Virus record (IMG/VR): IMGVR_UViG_3300029467_000153
From: a virus
Lineage: Duplodnaviria > Heunggongvirae > Uroviricota > Caudoviricetes
Length of the DNA stretch: 25,684 nucleotides
Direction: 5' to 3' (one strand)
A program made the translations under genes and the position numbers. Position 1 is the first letter of the stretch. The number at the start of each line of letters is the position of its first letter. Below are positions 2,847-22,377 of the stretch, one piece after another. A model generated the notes under the pieces. The model was given only the letters and a program-made list of their open reading frames with translations. It was not told the DNA's origin and ran no database searches.

Positions 2847-5318
2847 TTAAGAATCAGCCTGACTCGGGATCAGTTTTTGCCAGATAACTGAAACGTATTT
2901 TGCCTGGTAACGGGCGTCATCAAGTGCATTATGGCGCTCACCTTCGAATGGAATAGCCGTTCTGGCATCGAAGTCTATGGCTTTCCCCAGCTCAACGATT
3001 GTGCGTACATCGCGATCGTTGTAGTAACGCCACGGGCAGGGGATCCCCTGCCGTTCGTATGAACGGCGCAAAATCGTGTTGTCGAAGTTGGCTCCATTTC
3101 CCCAAACCTGAACAAAAAATTCACCGGAGTTTTCGTCGATAAATTCTCGCAATTGTAACAGTGCATCATCTAACGGGATTTCATCGGTCATAATGGCAGA
3201 TTGCGCTTCGCGTGATTGCTTAAGCCACCATTTAATGGTGTCCCGATCAATGACTCCGCCAGCAGTTTCCAGATCGATAGTCTTACTAAATTCCGGTCCC
3301 ATATCTCCGGTTTGCGGATCGAAAAATATTGCACCTATTGAGATGATCGGGGCATCAGGATTTTTTCCCATGGTTTCAAGGTCGATCATTAGATGGTCAC
3401 ACGTCCTGCTGGTGGATGTGATTTCGTGATGACTGTTCACCTTAATTGGGTGATCTGCCGTCTCGCCAGTTTCATTATCGCTATTGTGATGCTGATTGCC
3501 GCCAGTGTTCTCCTTGTGTGGATGTTCAGCGCCTTCCATTTCCTCCGGATCATCTTCCTGAACTTCAACCTGATACTCTTCATCGAATGTTTCTTGGTAT
3601 GTTGCGTCGCCCATCACCGCGCCACAATCAGGGCAGTTGCCGCCGCCGGTCTGACCGCAGGCGGTGCAGACTTTTTCCACTTCCTGTTGCGCTACTGGTT
3701 CAGGCTGTTTCGTTTCTGGCTCGTTTTGTAACGCATTTGGACTGTTTTGTTCCGCTTTTTGGTAGTTCCGTTCCGATTCATGCTGGTTCTGGTTCACAGA
3801 ATCGCGGGTCTGGAGCCCCTTAACCCATTTCGGATCATTCGGGTCACTAATCCCTTCAACAAATTCACCACGTGATGCAGCAAGCAACTTATCGGCGTCA
3901 GGCTGGCTGATATTGGCTGCCTGCATAATTTTGTTTACTTCGTCAGCGGTAACTTTTATCGGCTCTGGTTGTTCTGAATCTTCAGCGGTATCTACATTTT
4001 GCGGTAAGCCCGTGTATGTGCCATTTTTTCGGGCAAAATATTCTTCTTTTGTGATTTCAGTGGCGCCAGCAGCCAGTGCCTTATCCAGACCAGAGAGTTT
4101 GTTTGCGCGACCGTATTTTTCTCCGTCCTTATCTGCGAAGAGGAAATAGAACGGCCCCTCACGCTCTACAGATGGTTCAGCTTCCGGCGCGGTTTCATTT
4201 TTTGGGATATCAGATACCTCAGTTTCCACTGCATCAGTTTGTGTGTCTGATGACTGGAGAACATCAACAGTGCCCAGGTCTGTTTCTTCATTCTCAAACA
4301 CGCCCTTTGTCGTCAGGTATTCGCAGATATATTTGTTCAGTGCTACGGGATCTTTGTGAATGTCGATCGGACGCTCACGGACAAGGCCAAAAATAGTTTG
4401 GCGGTCGTAGCGAAGGGCATCAGGCTGTTTGCGCATTGATGCCGAGATACGCTTCCAGTCTTCGCGGTCGTTGTCGATAACTTCTTTTTTTGCCCAGCGA
4501 TGGATGCTGCCGTCAATGTTTCCGGCATCCACATCACTAGGCCAGAGAGCGTAGGCCAGTTCGTCATCCAGTGTTTTCCATGTCTGCTTGTATTCGCGAT
4601 GAATGGCAGCAATGACCGGGCTGATTTTTCCTGTTGAATTTTCAGTGTACTGTTGATTGGCTCTGGCGCGGGCGAGATCAACAACAGACGTGTATTTTCC
4701 GGTTTCCTTGCGTTCACCTTCGCGACGTTTTTTCCAGATGCGCATCTCTGCCTGAATTTCGGGCCATTTAGCACCAGGAATACATTTATGCTTAACCCAC
4801 CCAATGGCGTGCAACTTAAGCTCCGGATACATGGCGTTAACTTCTGGCATTTTCATCAACGCTTCAACGATATGTCCGTCGAATGTTGCCATGTCTTCCT
4901 GCAACAATTCCTGTGCGCTAATAACCATATCAACGGTGATGTTTTCACATGTGTCGAACTTAACCATGACAGCGTTCTGTACTTCAGGGGCCAGCTTGTC
5001 AAAAGTGACGTTCATCGGATCGGATTCAGTCTCAACCGGGACAAAAGAAGCAGACTCCTCATCCCAGCGGTTTTCCTGCATATATTCAGCATCCCATGAA
5101 TCGAGGGCAGGGCGGGGTATGCCAGGTTTATCCTCGCAGACAATAAATTTATAAGCGCAGTCCTGAGCAGCCGGATAATGTTCTAGGAATTGCCAGTGAA
5201 ATTTTGCTCGAGCACGGCGTTCGTCGCCAGCTTCAATGGCTGTGGCTACAGCCACAGCGCCTTCTTCCCTTGTTGCCAGTTCGTCAGGAATAGCGGCGCA
5301 AATAAAGACTTTACTCAT
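2847..5318 (-). CDS. large prophage protein with C-terminal DEDDh (DnaQ-like) 3'-5' exonuclease domain; family often annotated exodeoxyribonuclease VIII-like
   Basis: 823-aa ORF; C-terminal about 180 aa carry Exo I (MIDLETMG), Exo II (GNGANFDNTIL) and Exo III (HNALDDARYQ) motifs; central acidic low-complexity linker and a Cys4 motif (CTACGQTGGGNCPDCG); occupies the exo/bet position of the leftward operon. Confidence 0.7.
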   Translation of the reverse strand: MSKVFICAAIPDELATREEGAVAVATAIEAGDERRARAKFHWQFLEHYPAAQDCAYKFIVCEDKPGIPRPALDSWDAEYMQENRWDEESASFVPVETESDPMNVTFDKLAPEVQNAVMVKFDTCENITVDMVISAQELLQEDMATFDGHIVEALMKMPEVNAMYPELKLHAIGWVKHKCIPGAKWPEIQAEMRIWKKRREGERKETGKYTSVVDLARARANQQYTENSTGKISPVIAAIHREYKQTWKTLDDELAYALWPSDVDAGNIDGSIHRWAKKEVIDNDREDWKRISASMRKQPDALRYDRQTIFGLVRERPIDIHKDPVALNKYICEYLTTKGVFENEETDLGTVDVLQSSDTQTDAVETEVSDIPKNETAPEAEPSVEREGPFYFLFADKDGEKYGRANKLSGLDKALAAGATEITKEEYFARKNGTYTGLPQNVDTAEDSEQPEPIKVTADEVNKIMQAANISQPDADKLLAASRGEFVEGISDPNDPKWVKGLQTRDSVNQNQHESERNYQKAEQNSPNALQNEPETKQPEPVAQQEVEKVCTACGQTGGGNCPDCGAVMGDATYQETFDEEYQVEVQEDDPEEMEGAEHPHKENTGGNQHHNSDNETGETADHPIKVNSHHEITSTSRTCDHLMIDLETMGKNPDAPIISIGAIFFDPQTGDMGPEFSKTIDLETAGGVIDRDTIKWWLKQSREAQSAIMTDEIPLDDALLQLREFIDENSGEFFVQVWGNGANFDNTILRRSYERQGIPCPWRYYNDRDVRTIVELGKAIDFDARTAIPFEGERHNALDDARYQAKYVSVIWQKLIPSQADS

Positions 5319-8246: not shown

Positions 8247-8621
8247 GGGTGTTCATGGCGGTCATGTGCATTGAATACTGGCGGTAAATACAGCGAACTC
8301 CATTGGTTTAGTTGGATATTTACTGTGCTGGACAAAAACGGTTTGCGGGGAAATCTTAGTTAAGTAGAATGACTGCGGGTGCTTGAGGCTATCTGCCTCG
8401 GGCACGAACACCAACGGCAGGTAGAGAAAAGCCCCAGTTAACATTACGCGTCCTGCAAGACGCTTAACATTAATCTGAGGCCAATTTCATGCCAGACACA
8501 TGTAGGTTAGCCTCTTACGTGCCGAAAGGCAAGGAGAAGCAGGCTATTGTTAACACCAAGCTGTAATGTCCCCTTTGAACCATTCTAAAATGTCCCCAGA
8601 CAATTCTCTGGGGGATTTTTC

Positions 8622-12831: not shown

Positions 12832-13882
12832 CGTGCGGGTATTACTTAGACCTGTTCTGGTGCCTGAGCTTGGGCTGGTGGTCCTTAAGCCAGGCCGTGA
12901 ATCCATACAGATATTTCATAATCCTCGAGTGCTGGTGGAACCGGAACCAAAAAGCATGCGTAATCTGCCATCCGGAGTCGTTCCTGCCGTTCGCCAGCCG
13001 CTGGCGGAAGACAAAACATTGCTGCCGTTTTTTAGTAACGAACGGGTGATTCGTGCTGCTGGCGGCGTTGGCGCATTGTCCGACTGGCTATTACGTCATG
13101 TTACATCCTGCCAGTGGCCTAATGGCGATTACCATCACACTGAAACAGTCATTCACCGTTATGGTACCGGCGCAATGGTGTTGTGCTGGCACTGCGACAA
13201 CCAACTGCGTGACCAGACATCGGAATCACTGGAGCTGCTTGCTCAACAAAATCTGACAGCATGGGTGATTGACGTCATCCGTCACGCAATAAGCGGTACG
13301 CAGGAGCGGGAATTATCTTTGGCTGAATTATCCTGGTGGGCGGTCTGCAATCAGGTGGTGGATGCACTACCTGAGGCTGTATCGCGTCGTTCGCTGGGAT
13401 TACCAGCGGAAAAAATCTGCTCGGTGTACCGCGAAAGCGACATCGTACCGGGAGAGCAGACCGCCACCAGCATATTGAAACAACGCACAAAAAATCTTGC
13501 ACCGTTGCCTTACGCCCACCAGCAACAAAAATCACCACAGGAAAAGACGGTGGTAAGCATCACCGTTGATCCAGAGTCTCCGGAATCTTTCATGAAGCTG
13601 CCTAAACGTCGCCGCTGGGTTAAGGAGAAATACACACGTTGGGTTAAGACACAGCCGTGTGCTTGCTGCGGTATGCCAGCCGACGATCCGCATCATCTGA
13701 TTGGTCACGGGCAGGGCGGAATGGGAACAAAAGCACATGATCTCTTTGTGTTGCCTTTGTGCAGAAAGCATCACAACGAGCTGCATACGGATACAGTGGC
13801 ATTTGAAGATAAGTATGGCTCCCAACTGGAGCTGATATTTCGTTTTATCGATCGCGCGCTGGCAATTGGCGTACTGGCGTAA
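12794..13882 (+). CDS. ydfU: DUF968-type prophage protein (YdfU-like) with C-terminal Cys/His cluster
   Basis: 362-aa ORF; C-terminus CACCGMPADDPHHLIGHGQGGMGTKAHDLFVLPLCRKHHNELH looks like a metal-binding HNH-like motif; sits in the nin-region position upstream of Q. True start uncertain. Confidence 0.6.
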   Translation: MRPALSSNGSGGNVRVLLRPVLVPELGLVVLKPGRESIQIFHNPRVLVEPEPKSMRNLPSGVVPAVRQPLAEDKTLLPFFSNERVIRAAGGVGALSDWLLRHVTSCQWPNGDYHHTETVIHRYGTGAMVLCWHCDNQLRDQTSESLELLAQQNLTAWVIDVIRHAISGTQERELSLAELSWWAVCNQVVDALPEAVSRRSLGLPAEKICSVYRESDIVPGEQTATSILKQRTKNLAPLPYAHQQQKSPQEKTVVSITVDPESPESFMKLPKRRRWVKEKYTRWVKTQPCACCGMPADDPHHLIGHGQGGMGTKAHDLFVLPLCRKHHNELHTDTVAFEDKYGSQLELIFRFIDRALAIGVLA

Positions 13883-13895
13883 GTGGAGAACGAGC

Positions 13896-14648
13896 ATGAA
13901 CCTTGAAGCCTTACCAAAATATTACTCCCCAAAATCTCCAAAATTGAGCGATGACGCTCCAGCGACAGGCACCGGTTGTTTAACAATTACGGATGTAATG
14001 GCAGCGCAGGGGATGGTGCAGTCGAAAGCACCACTTGGGTTGGCCTTATTTCTGGCAAAAGTTGGTGTTCAGGACCCTCAGTTTGCGATTGAAGGCCTGC
14101 TAAATTACGCGATGGCACTGGATAACCCGACATTGAACAAATTGAGTGAAGAAATCCGGTTACAGATTATTCCTTACCTCGTGAGTTTTGCCTTTGCTGA
14201 TTACTCCAGGTCTGCGGCAAGTAAGGCTCGCTGTGAGCATTGTTCAGGTACGGGATTTTATAATGTATTGCGCGAAGTGGTGAAACACTACAGACGCGGG
14301 GAATCTGTAATCAAGGAAGAATGGGTGAAGGAACTATGTCAGCATTGCCATGGTAAGGGCGAAGCCAGCACAGCGTGCAGAGGGTGTAAGGGTAAAGGGA
14401 TTGTTCTGGATGAAAAAAGAACCCGGTTTCATGGCGTACCGGTATATAAGATTTGTGGGCGTTGTAATGGAAACCGGTTTAGTCGTTTACCGACCACGCT
14501 GGCACGACGTCATGTCCAGAAGCTGGTACCAGACCTGACCGATTATCAGTGGTATAAGGGGTATGCGGACGTCATTGGTAAACTGGTAACAAAGTGCTGG
14601 CAGGAAGAAGCATACGCGGAAGCGCAATTGAGGAAGGTGACGAGATAA
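13896..14648 (+). CDS. quuQ: late-gene antiterminator Q
   Basis: Start taken at the internal ATG 13896 (MNLEALPKYYSPK...) preceded by GGAGA; Cys/His-rich zinc-binding region (CEHCSGTG...CQHCHGKG...CRGCKGKG...CGRCNG); located just upstream of the lysis region. Confidence 0.8.
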   Translation: MNLEALPKYYSPKSPKLSDDAPATGTGCLTITDVMAAQGMVQSKAPLGLALFLAKVGVQDPQFAIEGLLNYAMALDNPTLNKLSEEIRLQIIPYLVSFAFADYSRSAASKARCEHCSGTGFYNVLREVVKHYRRGESVIKEEWVKELCQHCHGKGEASTACRGCKGKGIVLDEKRTRFHGVPVYKICGRCNGNRFSRLPTTLARRHVQKLVPDLTDYQWYKGYADVIGKLVTKCWQEEAYAEAQLRKVTR

Positions 14649-14679
14649 ATGATTTTTGCTGAAGATGGCGACATGATGT

Positions 14680-14708
14680 TTGCATTTTTCAAAAAATATG
14701 GATAAAAT
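14680..14708 (+). promoter_or_regulatory. candidate late promoter (PR'-like) downstream of Q
   Basis: TTGCAT-N17-TAAAAT about 35 nt after the Q stop and about 45 nt before a strong terminator, the arrangement expected for a Q-utilisation promoter and short leader. The -35 is weak. Confidence 0.35.
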
Positions 14709-14754
14709 TTTTTCAACGATGGGCTTTGTATACCCGACGTTAAGAAAAAGTAGA

Positions 14755-14784
14755 AAACCCGCTGATGAGCGGGTTTTGTGCTTT
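14755..14784 (+). terminator. rho-independent terminator (tR'-like)
   Basis: aaacccgct-gatg-agcgggttt hairpin followed by tgtgcttt. Confidence 0.6.
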
Positions 14785-15069
14785 AAATGGGGCAATGGTA
14801 ATGTTGAATCTCATCCCGGGACTCATGTCTGTTAACTTATTATTTAGCTGGTGACTTGGTTATTTGCCTGATGTTTAAAATGTTTTCTTCCAGTACAATG
14901 TCCCTAAACACAATGAGTCTGCTTATTATATTATTAGCAGAGCTATTACGGCCAAAGTACAGCATAAGCTTTTAAAGCCAATCAACCAGTCATCAAGACA
15001 GACGGGGTTATTCATAAAAACTCTCCATGTGTGATTCGATGGGGCCTGAAATTAAAGCTTTAATATAGC

Positions 15070-15282
15070 TCATGAAAGGTAAACATTGGCAGCTGAAGGG
15101 CCACGCAGACCATTTATCCGGCAAAATTCCACGCGTAATCCGGTGGTAATTTCTTCTGCATCGCGGAGATTGAGCGCTGAGACATGAAGCTGGACATCGA
15201 TACGACCATCGGATGGGGTGATAAGACCCTTGCCGCTTTTGCCGTCAAAGGTTTTGACAATTCCTGTCATTTTACGGGACAA
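15070..15282 (-). CDS. cspF: cold-shock-domain protein CspF
   Basis: 70-aa CspA-family [29 protein letters not shown]...[16 protein letters not shown], lacking the canonical aromatic RNP1 patch as in CspF/CspH; divergent from cspB. Confidence 0.8.
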
Positions 15283-15385
15283 AAAAATTCCTTAATACTG
15301 ATAACTTGGCGCACTATACACACGTTCCTGAAGAAAGCTATAGTTTTTTGATGGGGTTGAAGATGGCTGGATGTCTAAAATAAAC

Positions 15386-15414
15386 ATTGCTTCATATGTT
15401 CAACTATGCGTTAA
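15386..15414 (+). promoter_or_regulatory. candidate cspA-type promoter of cspB with long 5' UTR
   Basis: TTGCTT-N17-GTTAAT, about 170 nt upstream of the cspB ATG; the 11-mer ATGCGTTAATG is repeated upstream of cspI at the same relative position. Confidence 0.4.
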
Positions 15415-15582
15415 TGATTGCGTCGGTTTGAAGAACAGACGATATACGAAGTAGTTTACTAAAGCAGTTCTCATTTCAGGTGTTATTCACTTATTCCTTC
15501 TTTGAGTCTCTCCAATTAAGTACGAAGTCGTTTCTGTTATGCAAACCATTTATGCCGAAAGGCTCAAGTTAAGGAATGTAGA

Positions 15583-15798
15583 ATGTCAAATAAAATGACT
15601 GGTTTAGTAAAATGGTTTAACGCTGATAAAGGTTTCGGCTTTATTTCTCCTGTTGATGGTAGTAAAGATGTGTTTGTGCATTTTTCTGCGATTCAGAATG
15701 ATAATTATCGAACCTTATTTGAAGGTCAAAAGGTTACCTTCTCTATAGAGAGTGGTGCTAAAGGTCCTGCAGCAGCAAATGTCATCATTACTGATTAA
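15583..15798 (+). CDS. cspB: cold-shock protein CspB
   Basis: 71-aa [41 protein letters not shown]... with RNP1 (KGFGFI) and RNP2 (VFVHF) motifs. Confidence 0.9.
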
Positions 15799-16079
15799 AA
15801 TTCATCGCTCGTCTGTATACGATAACGAAGAAGGCTGATGCCTGAGTAGAGATACGGACAGAGTAGTGAATATTGGATCTCTTTAATAAAAAGTAAGGAG
15901 GTCCAATACATGAAACAATGGCTAGCATATTTGGCAAAATCTTAATCAGGAAAAGTATGCTAACCATTGTGGTGAAGTGCAGGTTTGCTGCATGAATAGT
16001 TTTACAGCAGAAGCTAACTGCTGGCATGGCAAAACAAAGTGCGTAAGTGGATGACTCCCACAAAAAGCACCACAATCTC

Positions 16080-16103
16080 AAACCCGCTCAGGCGGGTTTT
16101 TTA
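16080..16103 (+). terminator. rho-independent terminator between cspB and the minus-strand zinc-ribbon gene
   Basis: cccgc-tcag-gcggg hairpin followed by tttttt. Confidence 0.5.
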
Positions 16104-16161
16104 TTATCTGCTTTAAATATATTATTAAAATATAAAAAATACTTGTTACTAATAAAATCAA

Positions 16162-16332
16162 TCAGGCTACAGCTTTAAGATTTGTCTGGAATACTTTGTT
16201 GCAATGAGGGCAGATCAAAAGGGCACCTTTTTGTACTCTTGAAAAACTGTGTTCTGACTCTTGGGTGCAGTTTGGGCAGGAACATTTAACGAGATAATTA
16301 CGGCGTGATTTTGAGTTTTTACGTTCTGACAT
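16162..16332 (-). CDS. small zinc-ribbon protein (CPxC...CPxC), hypothetical
   Basis: 56 aa from the internal ATG, which has an AGGAAA Shine-Dalgarno: MSERKNSKSRRNYLVKCSCPNCTQESEHSFSRVQKGALLICPHCNKVFQTNLKAVA. The ORF track extends it to 16383. Confidence 0.45.
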   Translation of the reverse strand: MSERKNSKSRRNYLVKCSCPNCTQESEHSFSRVQKGALLICPHCNKVFQTNLKAVA

Positions 16333-16551
16333 AGGCTTTTCCTGTATAAATGGCCGTATACAGTACACTAAATATGAAAACATTTCTCGTATTATTATTT
16401 TATATATGACTTTCTTTCAAAATAATTACCCACATTTTTAATGTGTATGTTTTTTTAGCGCCGTTGAGAACAACGTGTGCTGTCAAAACTACCCCGTAGA
16501 CTCCGATCTTTTCAAACATATTGCACCATCCGTGTACATCGGGGTGAGGAT

Positions 16552-16767
16552 ATGAAATCAATGGATAAGTTAACAACAGGTGTTGCCTATGGCACATCGG
16601 CGGGTAATGCTGGTTTCTGGGCATTGCAGTTACTCGATAAAGTAACTCCGTCACAGTGGGCTGCAATCGGTGTGCTGGGTAGCCTGGTTTTTGGCCTGCT
16701 GACGTATCTGACAAATCTTTATTTCAAGATTAAAGAAGACAGGCGTAAGGCTGCGAGAGGAGAGTAA
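16552..16767 (+). CDS. essQ: class II holin / pinholin (phage 21 S-like) with dual-start motif
   Basis: [71 protein letters not shown]: two transmembrane segments, Met1-Lys-Ser-Met4 dual start, charged C-terminus; GTGAGGA Shine-Dalgarno upstream. Confidence 0.8.
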
Positions 16768-16771
16768 TCCA

Positions 16772-17079
16772 ATGACTCAAGACTATGAACTGGTTGTGAA
16801 AGGAGTCCGTAATTTTGAGAATAAAGTTACGGTAACTGTAGCCTTACAGGACAAAGAACGCTTTGACGGTGAAATTTTTGACCTGGATGTCGCCATGGAC
16901 CGTGTTGAAGGAGCTGCGCTGGAGTTTTATGAGGCAGCAGCCAGAAGGAGCGTCCGGCAAGTCTTCCTGGAAGTAGCAGAAAAATTGTCAGAAAAAGTTG
17001 AGTCTTATCTGCAGCATCAGTACTCCTTTAAGATTGAAAATCCTGCCAATAAGCACGAGCGTCCTCATCATAAATATAT

Positions 17080-17083
<4 letters not shown>
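16772..17083 (+). CDS. ydfR: YdfR-like protein of unknown function in the lysis cassette
   Basis: 103-aa ORF between holin and endolysin; GAGAGGAGAG Shine-Dalgarno; stop overlaps the endolysin start (ATGA). Confidence 0.65.
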
Positions 17084-18107
<1,024 letters not shown>

Positions 18108-18290
18108 GGTAATATTAAATCGGAACATTTACATCGCGGAATGTAAAATTTAAATAAAAAGGACTCTTCCATGAGCCAAAATTCCTGAAATCTTAAGGGT
18201 AAGATAAAAGGTCTTAATCAGAATGACACGTTATTATTAATAAATAAAGCTATTCTTTCATTGCTGTGTTTTTCTTTACAAAAGTAATCC

Positions 18291-18319: not shown

Positions 18320-18470
18320 GGTGTTCTGGTTTGTTACAAATTTATCTGAAGCAGTCATTGTTATAATTTTATTATTTGTACCTCTTGAGATTTCCTTGTT
18401 GGTTTTTCTCTCTGATATTTTTTTTCGGACCATTCTGCCCAAGGGCTAATTTCTTCAAAAGGTAATAATT

Positions 18471-18683
18471 ATGTCTAACAAAATGACTGGTTTAGTGAAA
18501 TGGTTTAACCCTGAAAAAGGTTTTGGTTTCATCACGCCGAAAGATGGCAGCAAAGATGTGTTTGTCCATTTCTCAGCAATTCAGAGCAACGATTTCAAAA
18601 CATTAACTGAGAATCAGGAAGTTGAATTTGGTATTGAGAACGGACCTAAAGGTCCTGCCGCTGTTCATGTAGTGGCGCTTTGA
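18471..18683 (+). CDS. cspI: cold-shock protein CspI
   Basis: 70-aa [48 protein letters not shown]... with RNP1/RNP2 motifs. Confidence 0.9.
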
Positions 18684-18887
18684 GGTAGACAATATTACAA
18701 ACCATATTCACTTTAGATGCCCGTGTTGTCATGGTTCCCAGTATAGAACATCATCTTTTGATGTTTCTGACATGAATCCTTTCGGGGCAAAATGTATCTT
18801 TTGTAAATCAATGATGATTACATTTGATAATATTTCACAATACTTAAATGCCAGCCGTCTGTCGTTGGATTTAAAAAAGTGAAAATG

Positions 18888-19184: not shown

Positions 19185-19352
19185 TTTGATGCTATTGTAT
19201 TGATAATTCAGGAAAATTTTCTTTGTCTGTTTGTGTAAAATTTAGACTATCGTATGTTGATTATTGCGATGTTTCATCTTATCTTTTACACGTTTGCACC
19301 ATATAATCGACTTACTGTGTAACTGGAAAGTCATAACAGACTAAAAGAGGAA

Positions 19353-19529
19353 ATGATGAATATTGAAAACTTAAAAACAAAAGCAGAAGCAGATATTTCT
19401 GAATATATAACAAAAAAAATTATTGAACTTAAGAAAAAGACCGGGAAAGAAGTTACCAGTATTCAGTTTACCGCACGGGAAAAAATGACGGGTCTTGAAA
19501 GCTATGATGTCAAGATTAATTTAATCTGA
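19353..19529 (+). CDS. gnsB: Gns-family small protein (GnsB-like)
   Basis: 58-aa ORF, below the ORF-track cutoff, found by translation: MMNIENLKTKAEADISEYITKKIIELKKKTGKEVTSIQFTAREKMTGLESYDVKINLI; AAAAGAGGAA Shine-Dalgarno upstream. Confidence 0.7.
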   Translation: MMNIENLKTKAEADISEYITKKIIELKKKTGKEVTSIQFTAREKMTGLESYDVKINLI

Positions 19530-19680
19530 TGTATTCAATAATAAAATTTATCCATAAACCTCGTTTTTACGGGGTTTTGTTATATTTGAATGGTTCCGAA
19601 TATCTAAATCACAATTGTTGATGGTTTTTATTAAACCAATGCAGTCCGGCTCAGGAGTGAGAGAAGCCGGACGTTATGGT

Positions 19681-21801: not shown

Positions 21802-22377
21802 ATGGCATTCAGAATGAGTGAACAACCACGGACCATAAAAATTTATAATCTGCTGGCCGGAACTAATGAATTTATTGGTGAAGGTGACGCATATATTCCG
21901 CCTCATACAGGTCTGCCAGCAAACAGTACCGATATTGCACCACCAGATATTCCTGCTGGCTTTGTGGCTGTTTTCAACAGTGATAAGGCATCGTGGCATC
22001 TCGTTGAAGACCATCGGGGTAAAACGGTTTATGACGTAGCGTCAGGGGACGCGTTATTTATTTCTGAACTCGGTCCGTTACCGGAAAATGTTACCTGGTT
22101 ATCGCCGGAAGGGGAGTTTCAGAAGTGGAACGGCACAGCCTGGGTGAAAGATGCAGAAGCAGAAAAACTGTTCCGGATCCGAGAGGCGGAAGAAACAAAA
22201 AACAGCCTGATGCAGGTAGCCAGTGAGCATATTGCGCCACTTCAGGATGCTGTAGATCTGGAAATCGCAACGGAGGAAGAAACCTCATTGCTGGAAGCCT
22301 GGAAAAAGTATCGGGTGTTGCTGAACCGTGTTGATACGTCAACTGCACAGGATATTGAATGGCCAGCACTGCCGTAG
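21802..22377 (+). CDS. tfaQ: tail fibre assembly protein
   Basis: 191-aa [51 protein letters not shown]... typical of lambdoid/Mu-type Tfa chaperones; directly follows the stf remnant. Confidence 0.8.

Follow-up and report, generated by a model that had tools for sequence, protein, structure and literature searches.

The subject of this report is the interval between a late antiterminator gene, quuQ, and the holin gene in the viral DNA IMGVR_UViG_3300029467_000153 (Caudoviricetes), a stretch of 25,684 nt that was analysed whole and is called the window here; all coordinates are positions in it. From 13866 to 16800, the window matches the Qin prophage of Escherichia coli K-12, as well as numerous other E. 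coli chromosomes, at 99.9–100% identity, and 1608 of 5426 complete E. coli genomes contain at least 80% of the length of this Q-to-holin stretch. A K-12-type record gives the gene order as ydfU, ydfT (quuQ, "antitermination protein"), cspF, cspB, ynfU, essD/essQ holin, ydfR, rrrQ, rzpQ, cspI, ymcF/ynfQ, ynfR, ynfN, and gnsB, and Pfam is consistent with all gene assignments of the locus. Given this annotation and prevalence, the Qin locus is already annotated and very common, and structurally nothing in the window differs from it. The regulatory reading presented here adds to the annotation a late promoter (PR'), a terminator behind it (tR'), and a second terminator at 16080. The RefSeq K-12 record has no feature entered for PR', its pause element, tR', the 16080 terminator, or the junctions of the cargo that lies between tR' and the holin gene. 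A search of one literature library returned no paper that deals with the late promoter of Qin, with its PR', tR', or junctions, or with cold-shock genes as cargo genes (morons) between Q and the holin gene S; only tables from systematic evolution of ligands by exponential enrichment (SELEX) mention the cspB-essQ spacer. The arrangement follows known, textbook logic, and the missing record of PR', tR', and junctions is an annotation gap, not a new kind of system. Exact coordinates are now available for each of these unrecorded elements.

The candidate late promoter and its terminator

The left side of the interval carries the following features.

13896 to 14648, plus strand: quuQ (ydfT), a late-gene antiterminator of the Q-lambda family, 250 amino acids (Pfam PF03589 Antiterm, E 3.6e-54; K-12 annotation)
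14680 to 14708, plus strand: candidate PR', with -35 TTGCAT at 14680-14685, a 17-nt spacer at 14686-14702, and -10 TAAAAT at 14703-14708
14715 to 14723, plus strand: predicted start at 14715 and sigma-dependent pause element AACGAT (14715-14720), then GGG; hexamer and distance from the -10 are the same as at lambda PR'
14754 to 14777, both strands: tR', a plausible bidirectional intrinsic terminator hairpin with a 10-bp G+C-rich stem (scan and folding; homology to five other genomes ends at 14777)

PF03589 is the Pfam entry for the Q-lambda family (PMC9388147). QuuQ also matched the lambda Q structures 7UBM, 4MO1, and 7UBJ, with E values ranging from 4.6e-36 (7UBM) to 1.3e-20. The protein contains four CxxC motifs, at residues 113, 148, 161, and 187, with a Pfam DnaJ_CXXCXGXG match over residues 113-194. 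Compared with lambda Q, it has an insertion of about 40 amino acids that doubles the CxxCxGxG zinc motif of the zinc-ribbon "arm". In lambda Q, this arm contacts the Q-binding element and sigma region 4.

The -35 hexamer of the candidate PR' begins 32 nt past the stop codon of the Q open reading frame (ORF), which ends at 14648. A consensus scan placed the promoter one base to the left (TTTGCA-18-TAAAAT, 9/12). The register of the window against lambda was fixed by ungapped anchoring on the lambda sequence, which gives the true correspondence; a MAFFT alignment had put the lambda -35 ten bases off register. When so anchored, lambda PR' reads TTGACT, 17 nt, TAAATT, TGACTC, AACGAT, and GGG, and the window reads TTGCAT, 17 nt, TAAAAT, TTTTTC, AACGAT, and GGG. 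The lambda pause hexamer, which covers +1 to +6, puts the predicted start in the window at 14715. The 17-nt spacer, which in lambda is the seat of the Q-binding element (a 13-bp asymmetric site upstream of the pause element), is identical to lambda at 11 of 17 positions by a count made by eye and is near-invariant among relatives. Pausing at lambda PR' occurs at +16/+17, with positions +4 to +6 in contact with sigma region 2 (PMC9191641). The GGG is a discriminator-like sequence that is frequent after sigma-dependent pause elements.

Among seven related loci, the -35 is unchanged, the -10 reads TAAAAT, TAAGAT, or TAATAT, with variation confined to one position, the pause hexamer is AACGAT or AATGAT, and a CCCGC/GCGGG hairpin is kept; the stretches between these elements vary. 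A search of the 25.7-kb window for the composite pattern TTGNNT-17-TAAANT-6-AAYGAT gave a single match, and 100 dinucleotide shuffles gave none. By homology with lambda, and beyond a match to the consensus, the site would be the late promoter of the prophage. A 51-amino-acid ORF at 14680-14835, recorded as "hypothetical protein" in phage PhiR42_1, was rejected as spurious; its start codon is the TTG of the -35 hexamer and it spans the terminator.

The leader from 14715 to 14790 folds at -30.4 kcal/mol (z = -6.1), and none of 200 shuffles folded as well. Terminator-like sites in 14300-16900 number five, against 1.7 ± 1.3 expected. The scan called the hairpin at 14754-14777 on the minus strand only, with the tail CUACUUUUU, because the U-tract on the plus strand (UUUUGUGCUUU) is interrupted. 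A comparison of that tract (14774-14784) with its equivalents in L002, L005, L007, and L008 shows U4-5 followed by GUGCUUU in all loci bearing the csp genes, versus U7-8 in relatives with other cargo, and the cargo junction falls inside the tract. Relatives without cspF also have the hairpin, and the record of phage SfV annotates a terminator there; the hairpin therefore belongs to the Q module. On the plus strand, it is predicted to end a PR' RNA of about 63–67 nt. Its reverse side probably ends the transcript of cspF together with that of a 29-amino-acid ORF downstream of cspF. An earlier sequence-only reading of the window had proposed a candidate PR' (TTGCAT-N17-TAAAAT) after Q, with a start at about 14715, and a strong terminator behind it. 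The promoter is borne out at 14680-14708 by the lambda register, the pause element, and the neighbouring Q-lambda homologue, and the predicted start coincides. The terminator is upheld as a strong hairpin (z = -6.1), with the qualification that its plus-strand U-tract is interrupted and that it is plausibly bidirectional.

It could be argued that these elements are fossils in the present host: Q would never be made, only cspB, cspF, and ynfU would be alive, and PR' and tR' would be relics or, for the hairpin, a mere terminator of cspF. The better U-tract of the hairpin on the minus strand agrees with this, as does the state of Qin, a known cryptic prophage. Insertion sequences, moreover, cut the matched stretch in two in several E. 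coli genomes, namely IS5 in H1 (within 13866-16800), IS1 in H79 (within 15800-16800) and in H119 (within 13896-14777), and IS200 in H90 (within 15800-16800). Qin has been called cryptic in the literature (PMC7547250). Against these points, an 895-bp stretch with the Q gene, PR', and tR' has a 100% identical counterpart in the deposited complete genome of phage PhiR42_1, where terminase genes lie downstream; the Q ORF and all four lysis ORFs are intact; and the tR' hairpin is conserved in the relatives that lack cspF. The fossil explanation is regarded as unlikely, and it bears on present use in K-12, not on what the elements are.

PhiR42_1 carries the whole block at 99.9% identity, and the same csp cargo is borne by the deposited complete phage genomes 2H10, Tritos, HannyBb, and PhiR63_1 (the Tritos copy lacks 14822-15079). 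Both terminators, tR' and that at 16080, are kept in the fetched phage loci 2H10, Tritos, and PhiR42_1. The arrangement is thus compatible with a complete phage genome, and prophage decay does not account for the cold-shock block.

The cargo between tR' and the holin gene

The cargo slot and the features within it are as follows.

14778 to about 16540, no strand: exchangeable cargo slot (moron block) of about 1.76 kb, defined by left and right junctions and G+C content
14926 to 15015, minus strand: ORF of 29 amino acids downstream of cspF, a hypothetical protein of the Prokaryotic Genome Annotation Pipeline in the K-12 annotation
15070 to 15282, minus strand: cspF, cold-shock-domain protein (Pfam CSD, E 5.6e-22; annotated)
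15387 to 15415, plus strand: probable cspB promoter, with -35 TTGCTT at 15387-15392, a 17-nt spacer, and TGC-GTTAAT at 15407-15415, and the A/T block CTAAAATAAA in front
15422 to 15814, plus strand: cspB mRNA, with a cspA-type thermoregulatory 5' untranslated region (15422-15582) and the coding sequence (15583-15798)
16080 to 16105, plus strand: one-directional intrinsic terminator with an 8-bp G+C-rich stem and U6 (hairpin 16080-16099, then UUUUUU)
16162 to 16332, minus strand: ynfU, a zinc-knuckle small protein of 56 amino acids (Pfam PF23499 YnfU, E 6.4e-31; annotated)

The junctions of the slot were mapped by pairwise BLAST of 13800-18200 against eight fetched loci. On the left, two E. coli prophages, SfV, mEp460, and a Stx2c-converting phage all lose their homology of about 91% exactly at 14777/14778. 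On the right, homology is regained at 16540 in mEp460, which has the same type of holin, and at 16524-16548 in many E. coli genomes, which is 4–28 nt before the holin ATG. The G+C content is 32–43% over 14600-16550 versus 44–55% in ydfU and quuQ and 44–52% in the lysis genes. The module of Q, PR', and tR' was found in 2415 of the 5426 genomes, and the junction of tR' with the csp block in 1412 of them. Other occupants of the slot include a small ORF and a DNA methyltransferase in SfV, with a second annotated terminator right before S; two hypothetical genes and a methylase abutting the holin gene in mEp460; hypothetical genes and a methylase fragment in the two prophages; and, in the Stx2c phage, a methylase gene with stx2A (Pfam RIP) and stx2B (SLT_beta) behind it. 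The cold-shock block thus sits in the position that Shiga toxin takes up in the same late-gene switch.

Of the cold-shock genes, cspB has the more complete set of signals. Its region at 15422-15814 scored 158.8 bits against the Rfam cspA family RF01766 (gathering score 78), and the protein matched Pfam CSD with E 9.8e-32. The block CTAAAATAAA-TTGCTT-17 nt-TGC-GTTAAT is common to the intergenic regions of Qin, the chromosomal cspH-cspG pair, and phage PHB10, stops 6 nt upstream of the start of the Rfam match at 15422, and probably serves as a cspA-like promoter of cspB. In contrast to cspA, there is no terminator directly past the cspB stop codon and the Rfam model has no match at its 3' end; the first strong terminator lies 282 nt on, at 16080. 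The region of this hairpin folded with z = -5.5, with none of 200 shuffles as good, and the terminator is near-identical across the csp-bearing loci, apart from a single loop-base change in L014. Two other candidates were discarded as terminators: a hairpin at 15977-15993 (z = -1.0, 30 of 200 shuffles as good) and a scan match at 15622, which lies within the cspB coding sequence. For the PR' leader and the region after cspB, other RNA families gave only sub-threshold matches in the E-value mode of Rfam (Trp_leader 21.7, isrK 18.3, and P9 19.3 bits), attributable to chance or to resemblance to terminators. Between the cspB stop codon and the 16080 terminator there is also an unannotated ORF of 11 codons (MKQWLAYLAKS, 15910-15945) with a perfect Shine-Dalgarno sequence, TAAGGAGGT, at 15894-15902; it is retained in 2H10, Tritos, and PhiR42_1 with the residue changes L to P and KS to IT.

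The other two genes of the block lie on the opposite strand. cspF stands head to head with cspB, with 300 bp between them, and has no cspA-type leader, its upstream region reaching 14.1 bits versus the gathering score of 78 for RF01766; it encodes a CspA-family protein without being a thermoregulated gene of the cspA type. A minus-strand -10-like TATAGT for cspF is kept in the three homologous intergenic regions. The 29-amino-acid ORF probably shares the cspF transcript, and the deletion in Tritos takes out this ORF along with the stop codon of cspF. For ynfU, the probable promoter is TTGAAA-18-AATAAT, from 16420 to 16391 on the minus strand, which at 10/12 is the top promoter-like site of the region. 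Both cspF and ynfU thus have promoter-like sites of their own on the minus strand. The YnfU protein has been detected experimentally and was among the best expressed of the newly found small proteins (bioRxiv 10.1101/511675).

The sequence-only reading had placed an inserted block of divergent cspF and cspB, as morons with signals of their own, at 14649-16110, with a terminator at 16080 and the holin gene about 1.8 kb beyond Q. The divergent pair is confirmed (15070-15282 on the minus strand and 15583-15798 on the plus strand, both with Pfam CSD), and so is the 16080 terminator, by its hairpin, U6, and fold; the holin ATG at 16552 is 1775 bp past the tR' hairpin. The separate signals are likewise recognizable, as the promoter block, Rfam leader, and terminator of cspB and the promoter-like site of cspF. 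The limits had to be revised to 14778 and about 16540 by the homology junctions, and the content had to be extended by a third gene, ynfU. The placement of the csp genes as moron cargo between the module of Q, PR', and tR' and the lysis cassette agrees with the shared junctions, the lower G+C content, and the alternative cargo, which includes stx2AB.

The csp block is a moron by the published definition (PMC2629481), as it is replaced or absent in close relatives with sharp junctions, provides cspB with a probable promoter and a predicted terminator of its own, and has a distinct base composition. A different history has to be weighed, in which no self-contained moron was ever inserted and the Q-to-S interval is a mosaic segment swapped wholesale by homologous recombination at the Q/tR' and holin flanks, with never an empty site. 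Two observations fit such an exchange: among the relatives found with this Q type, none had tR' joined directly to the holin gene and all carried 1.6–2.3 kb or more of cargo, and the junctions fall at the ends of conserved modules. On the other hand, sub-variants of the cargo exist, since Tritos lacks 14822-15079 and a prophage of MS15052 has the order Q-cspB-ynfU-holin without cspF. As a unit, the divergent csp pair is found in other places too, near the integrase in phage PHB10 and in the chromosome, which argues that the pair moves on its own between cargo sites. Wholesale exchange is possible but on the whole doubtful, and it departs from the moron interpretation mostly in history, not in present anatomy.

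Proposed transcription through the cargo into the lysis genes

The lysis genes form one cassette.

16552 to 18107, plus strand: lysis cassette, with the essQ holin (16552-16767), ydfR (16772-17083), the rrrQ lysozyme (17080-17613), and rzpQ (17610-18107)

The four genes matched Pfam Phage_holin_2_1, DUF1327, Phage_lysozyme, and DUF2514, respectively. Taken together, the region is very probably the start of a lambda-type late operon, that of Qin, with the moron lodged in its leader between tR' and the holin gene. In the prophage state, the constitutive PR' would yield only an RNA of about 65 nt, ended at tR'. Once made, Q would load on the polymerase paused at +16/+17, and the modified polymerase would pass tR', cross cspF in the antisense direction and cspB in the sense direction, continue past the 16080 terminator and across ynfU antisense, and finally transcribe essQ-ydfR-rrrQ-rzpQ. 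Such read-through is proposed by analogy with the established mechanism of lambda Q. The sequence-only reading had likewise put forward that Q-modified polymerase would have to traverse the csp locus and its terminators on the way to the lysis genes, so that cold-shock and late expression would be coupled or insulated. Q-loaded complexes have been described to disregard terminators across thousands of bp (PMC9388147), and in lysogens PR' is constitutive and stopped at tR', with stx being read from PR' (PMC7547250).

The two terminators that bracket the cspF-cspB pair would then have the net effect of insulation in the lysogen. The one at 16080 would shield the lethal lysis genes from strong, cold-induced transcription of cspB, and the bidirectional hairpin of tR' would block cspF transcription from entering Q antisense. 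During lytic growth, coupling to late transcription would apply to the sense-oriented cspB only, as it does to stx in Stx phages. The second annotated terminator before S in SfV suggests that the insulation design recurs. With the cargo junction inside its U-tract, tR' may leak more here than in relatives, and the 16080 terminator could act as a back-stop.

Several points weigh against this interpretation. The short plus-strand U-tract (UUUUGUGCUUU) means that tR' may leak. The 40-amino-acid insertion of QuuQ falls in the DNA-binding zinc arm, and the Q-binding element has no precise placement in the window. The start at 14715, termination at tR' and at 16080, and the read-through under Q have the status of predictions. 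Since Qin is defective in K-12, quuQ may never be expressed in that host. Finally, a promoter listed for essQ at 16399-16426 could give Q-independent expression of the lysis genes.

This last point underlies the remaining alternative, that transcription of the lysis genes starts independently of Q from a promoter in the AT-rich spacer, at 16399-16426, so that read-through from PR' would be unneeded and the csp block would be a mere neighbour outside the late transcription unit. Genomic SELEX with the sigma-70 holoenzyme gave a binding peak in the essQ-cspB spacer, and a "constitutive" promoter with the hexamer pair TTTATA-16-AATAAT was assigned to essQ-rrrQ-ydfP, with an H-NS flag (PMC3946193); peaks of minor sigma factors were also reported in this spacer (PMC5493296). 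The hexamer pair corresponds to 16399-16426 on the plus strand, where the scan recovered the same site at 9/12. Two opposed promoter-like sites in fact overlap at 16391-16426, this one and the minus-strand TTGAAA-18-AATAAT (10/12), and a SELEX peak carries no strand information. The assignment dates from a 2014 paper and is older than the discovery of ynfU; the better, overlapping site faces ynfU, which is detectably expressed, and the published "essQ promoter" may really be the promoter of ynfU or an incidental site. It sits, moreover, in the cargo, outside the conserved holin module, which starts 4–28 nt before the ATG. In mEp460, the same holin gene abuts the methylase gene, with no room upstream, which implies that the holin module has no promoter of its own. 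A constitutive promoter on a holin-endolysin cassette would also be harmful to the host. A separate promoter of the lysis cassette is therefore considered very unlikely.

Compared with the lambda switch of Q, PR', 6S RNA, tR', and S, the Qin locus is alike in its homologous Q, the promoter geometry, the AACGAT and GGG, and an intrinsic terminator ahead of the lysis genes. The gap between tR' and the holin gene is about 400 bp in lambda (with tR' placed by eye), whereas in Qin it is about 1.8 kb and holds three independently signalled genes. The predicted Qin leader of about 65 nt is shorter than that of lambda PR', which measures about 194 nt. Apart from the doubled zinc motif in QuuQ, a further difference is the Qin holin, which belongs to the S type of phage 21 and not to that of lambda. 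Stx phages share the slot and its logic; the Stx2c phage has the very same module of Q, PR', and tR', at 90.7% identity, with the break at the same nucleotide. In those phages, the sense-oriented stx cargo is co-transcribed from PR' on induction (PMC7547250). The Qin cargo, by contrast, has no toxin and consists of cold-shock genes under a cold-responsive control of their own; of its three genes, two run antisense to late transcription. The ant moron of P22 is comparable in that it is thought to influence the number of late-promoter polymerases that reach the downstream gene, but the Qin block precedes the first late gene, within the operon leader, and is not part of a virion-assembly cluster. 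Cargo of benefit to the host docks preferentially in the leader of late operons antiterminated by Q, of which the locus is a clean textbook example, and terminators allow a strongly stress-induced gene to sit beside lethal lysis genes.

The second cold-shock block and other observations

A second cold-shock cargo lies directly after the lysis cassette.

18325 to 18710, plus strand: cspI with a cspA-type leader, coding sequence 18471-18683 (RF01766, 112.8 bits; Pfam CSD, E 1.6e-31)

The post-lysis block extends to about 19530 and contains cspI, then ynfQ/ymcF, ynfR, ynfN, and gnsB. The lysis cassette is thus bracketed by cspB upstream and cspI downstream, in direct orientation. In phage mEp460_ev081, the cspI block is present and the upstream csp block is absent, with a different cargo between Q and S.

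The E. coli chromosome carries a related cluster, cspH-cspG-ymcF-ymcE-gnsA (4001-5275 of locus L010), whose surroundings, unlike those of the Qin genes, contain no phage genes. Over both genes and the shared promoter region, identity between the divergent pairs cspH/cspG and cspF/cspB is about 76%. The cluster aligns to the window as three pieces: cspH through the first 115 nt of cspG corresponds to 15074-15697 (cspF-cspB), cspG through ymcF to 18467-18830 (cspI-ynfQ), and gnsA to 19338-19530 (gnsB). The 5' untranslated region of cspG matches cspB at up to 34 of 40 positions and cspI at about 15 of 40, whereas its 3' half and the sequence beyond match cspI/ynfQ at 25–31 of 40 and cspB at 14–16 of 40; the changeover thus lies within the csp coding sequence. 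A tentative explanation, which is held to be unlikely, is that the chromosomal cluster is the product of recombination between the direct repeats cspB and cspI, with loss of ynfU and the lysis genes. When a synthetic cspB::cspI junction was searched in the 5426 complete genomes, no place covering at least 80% of the query was found, and the idea thus rests on one old chromosomal cluster of about 75% identity. If it were true, the host genes cspG, cspH, and gnsA may be domesticated phage cargo, and the csp repeats would be a built-in route for prophages to shed their lysis genes yet keep the cargo.

Phage PHB10 (4365-5083 of locus L012) has a diverged pair of a cspF-like and a csp gene (about 67% identity) beside the integrase gene and a gene for an SOS-response peptidase, outside the late operon. 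Elsewhere in the window, two further Rfam matches exceeded the gathering score, namely the sok antitoxin RNA at 8377-8548 (99.8 bits), adjoining hokD, and IS009 at 22145-22343 (226.7 bits).

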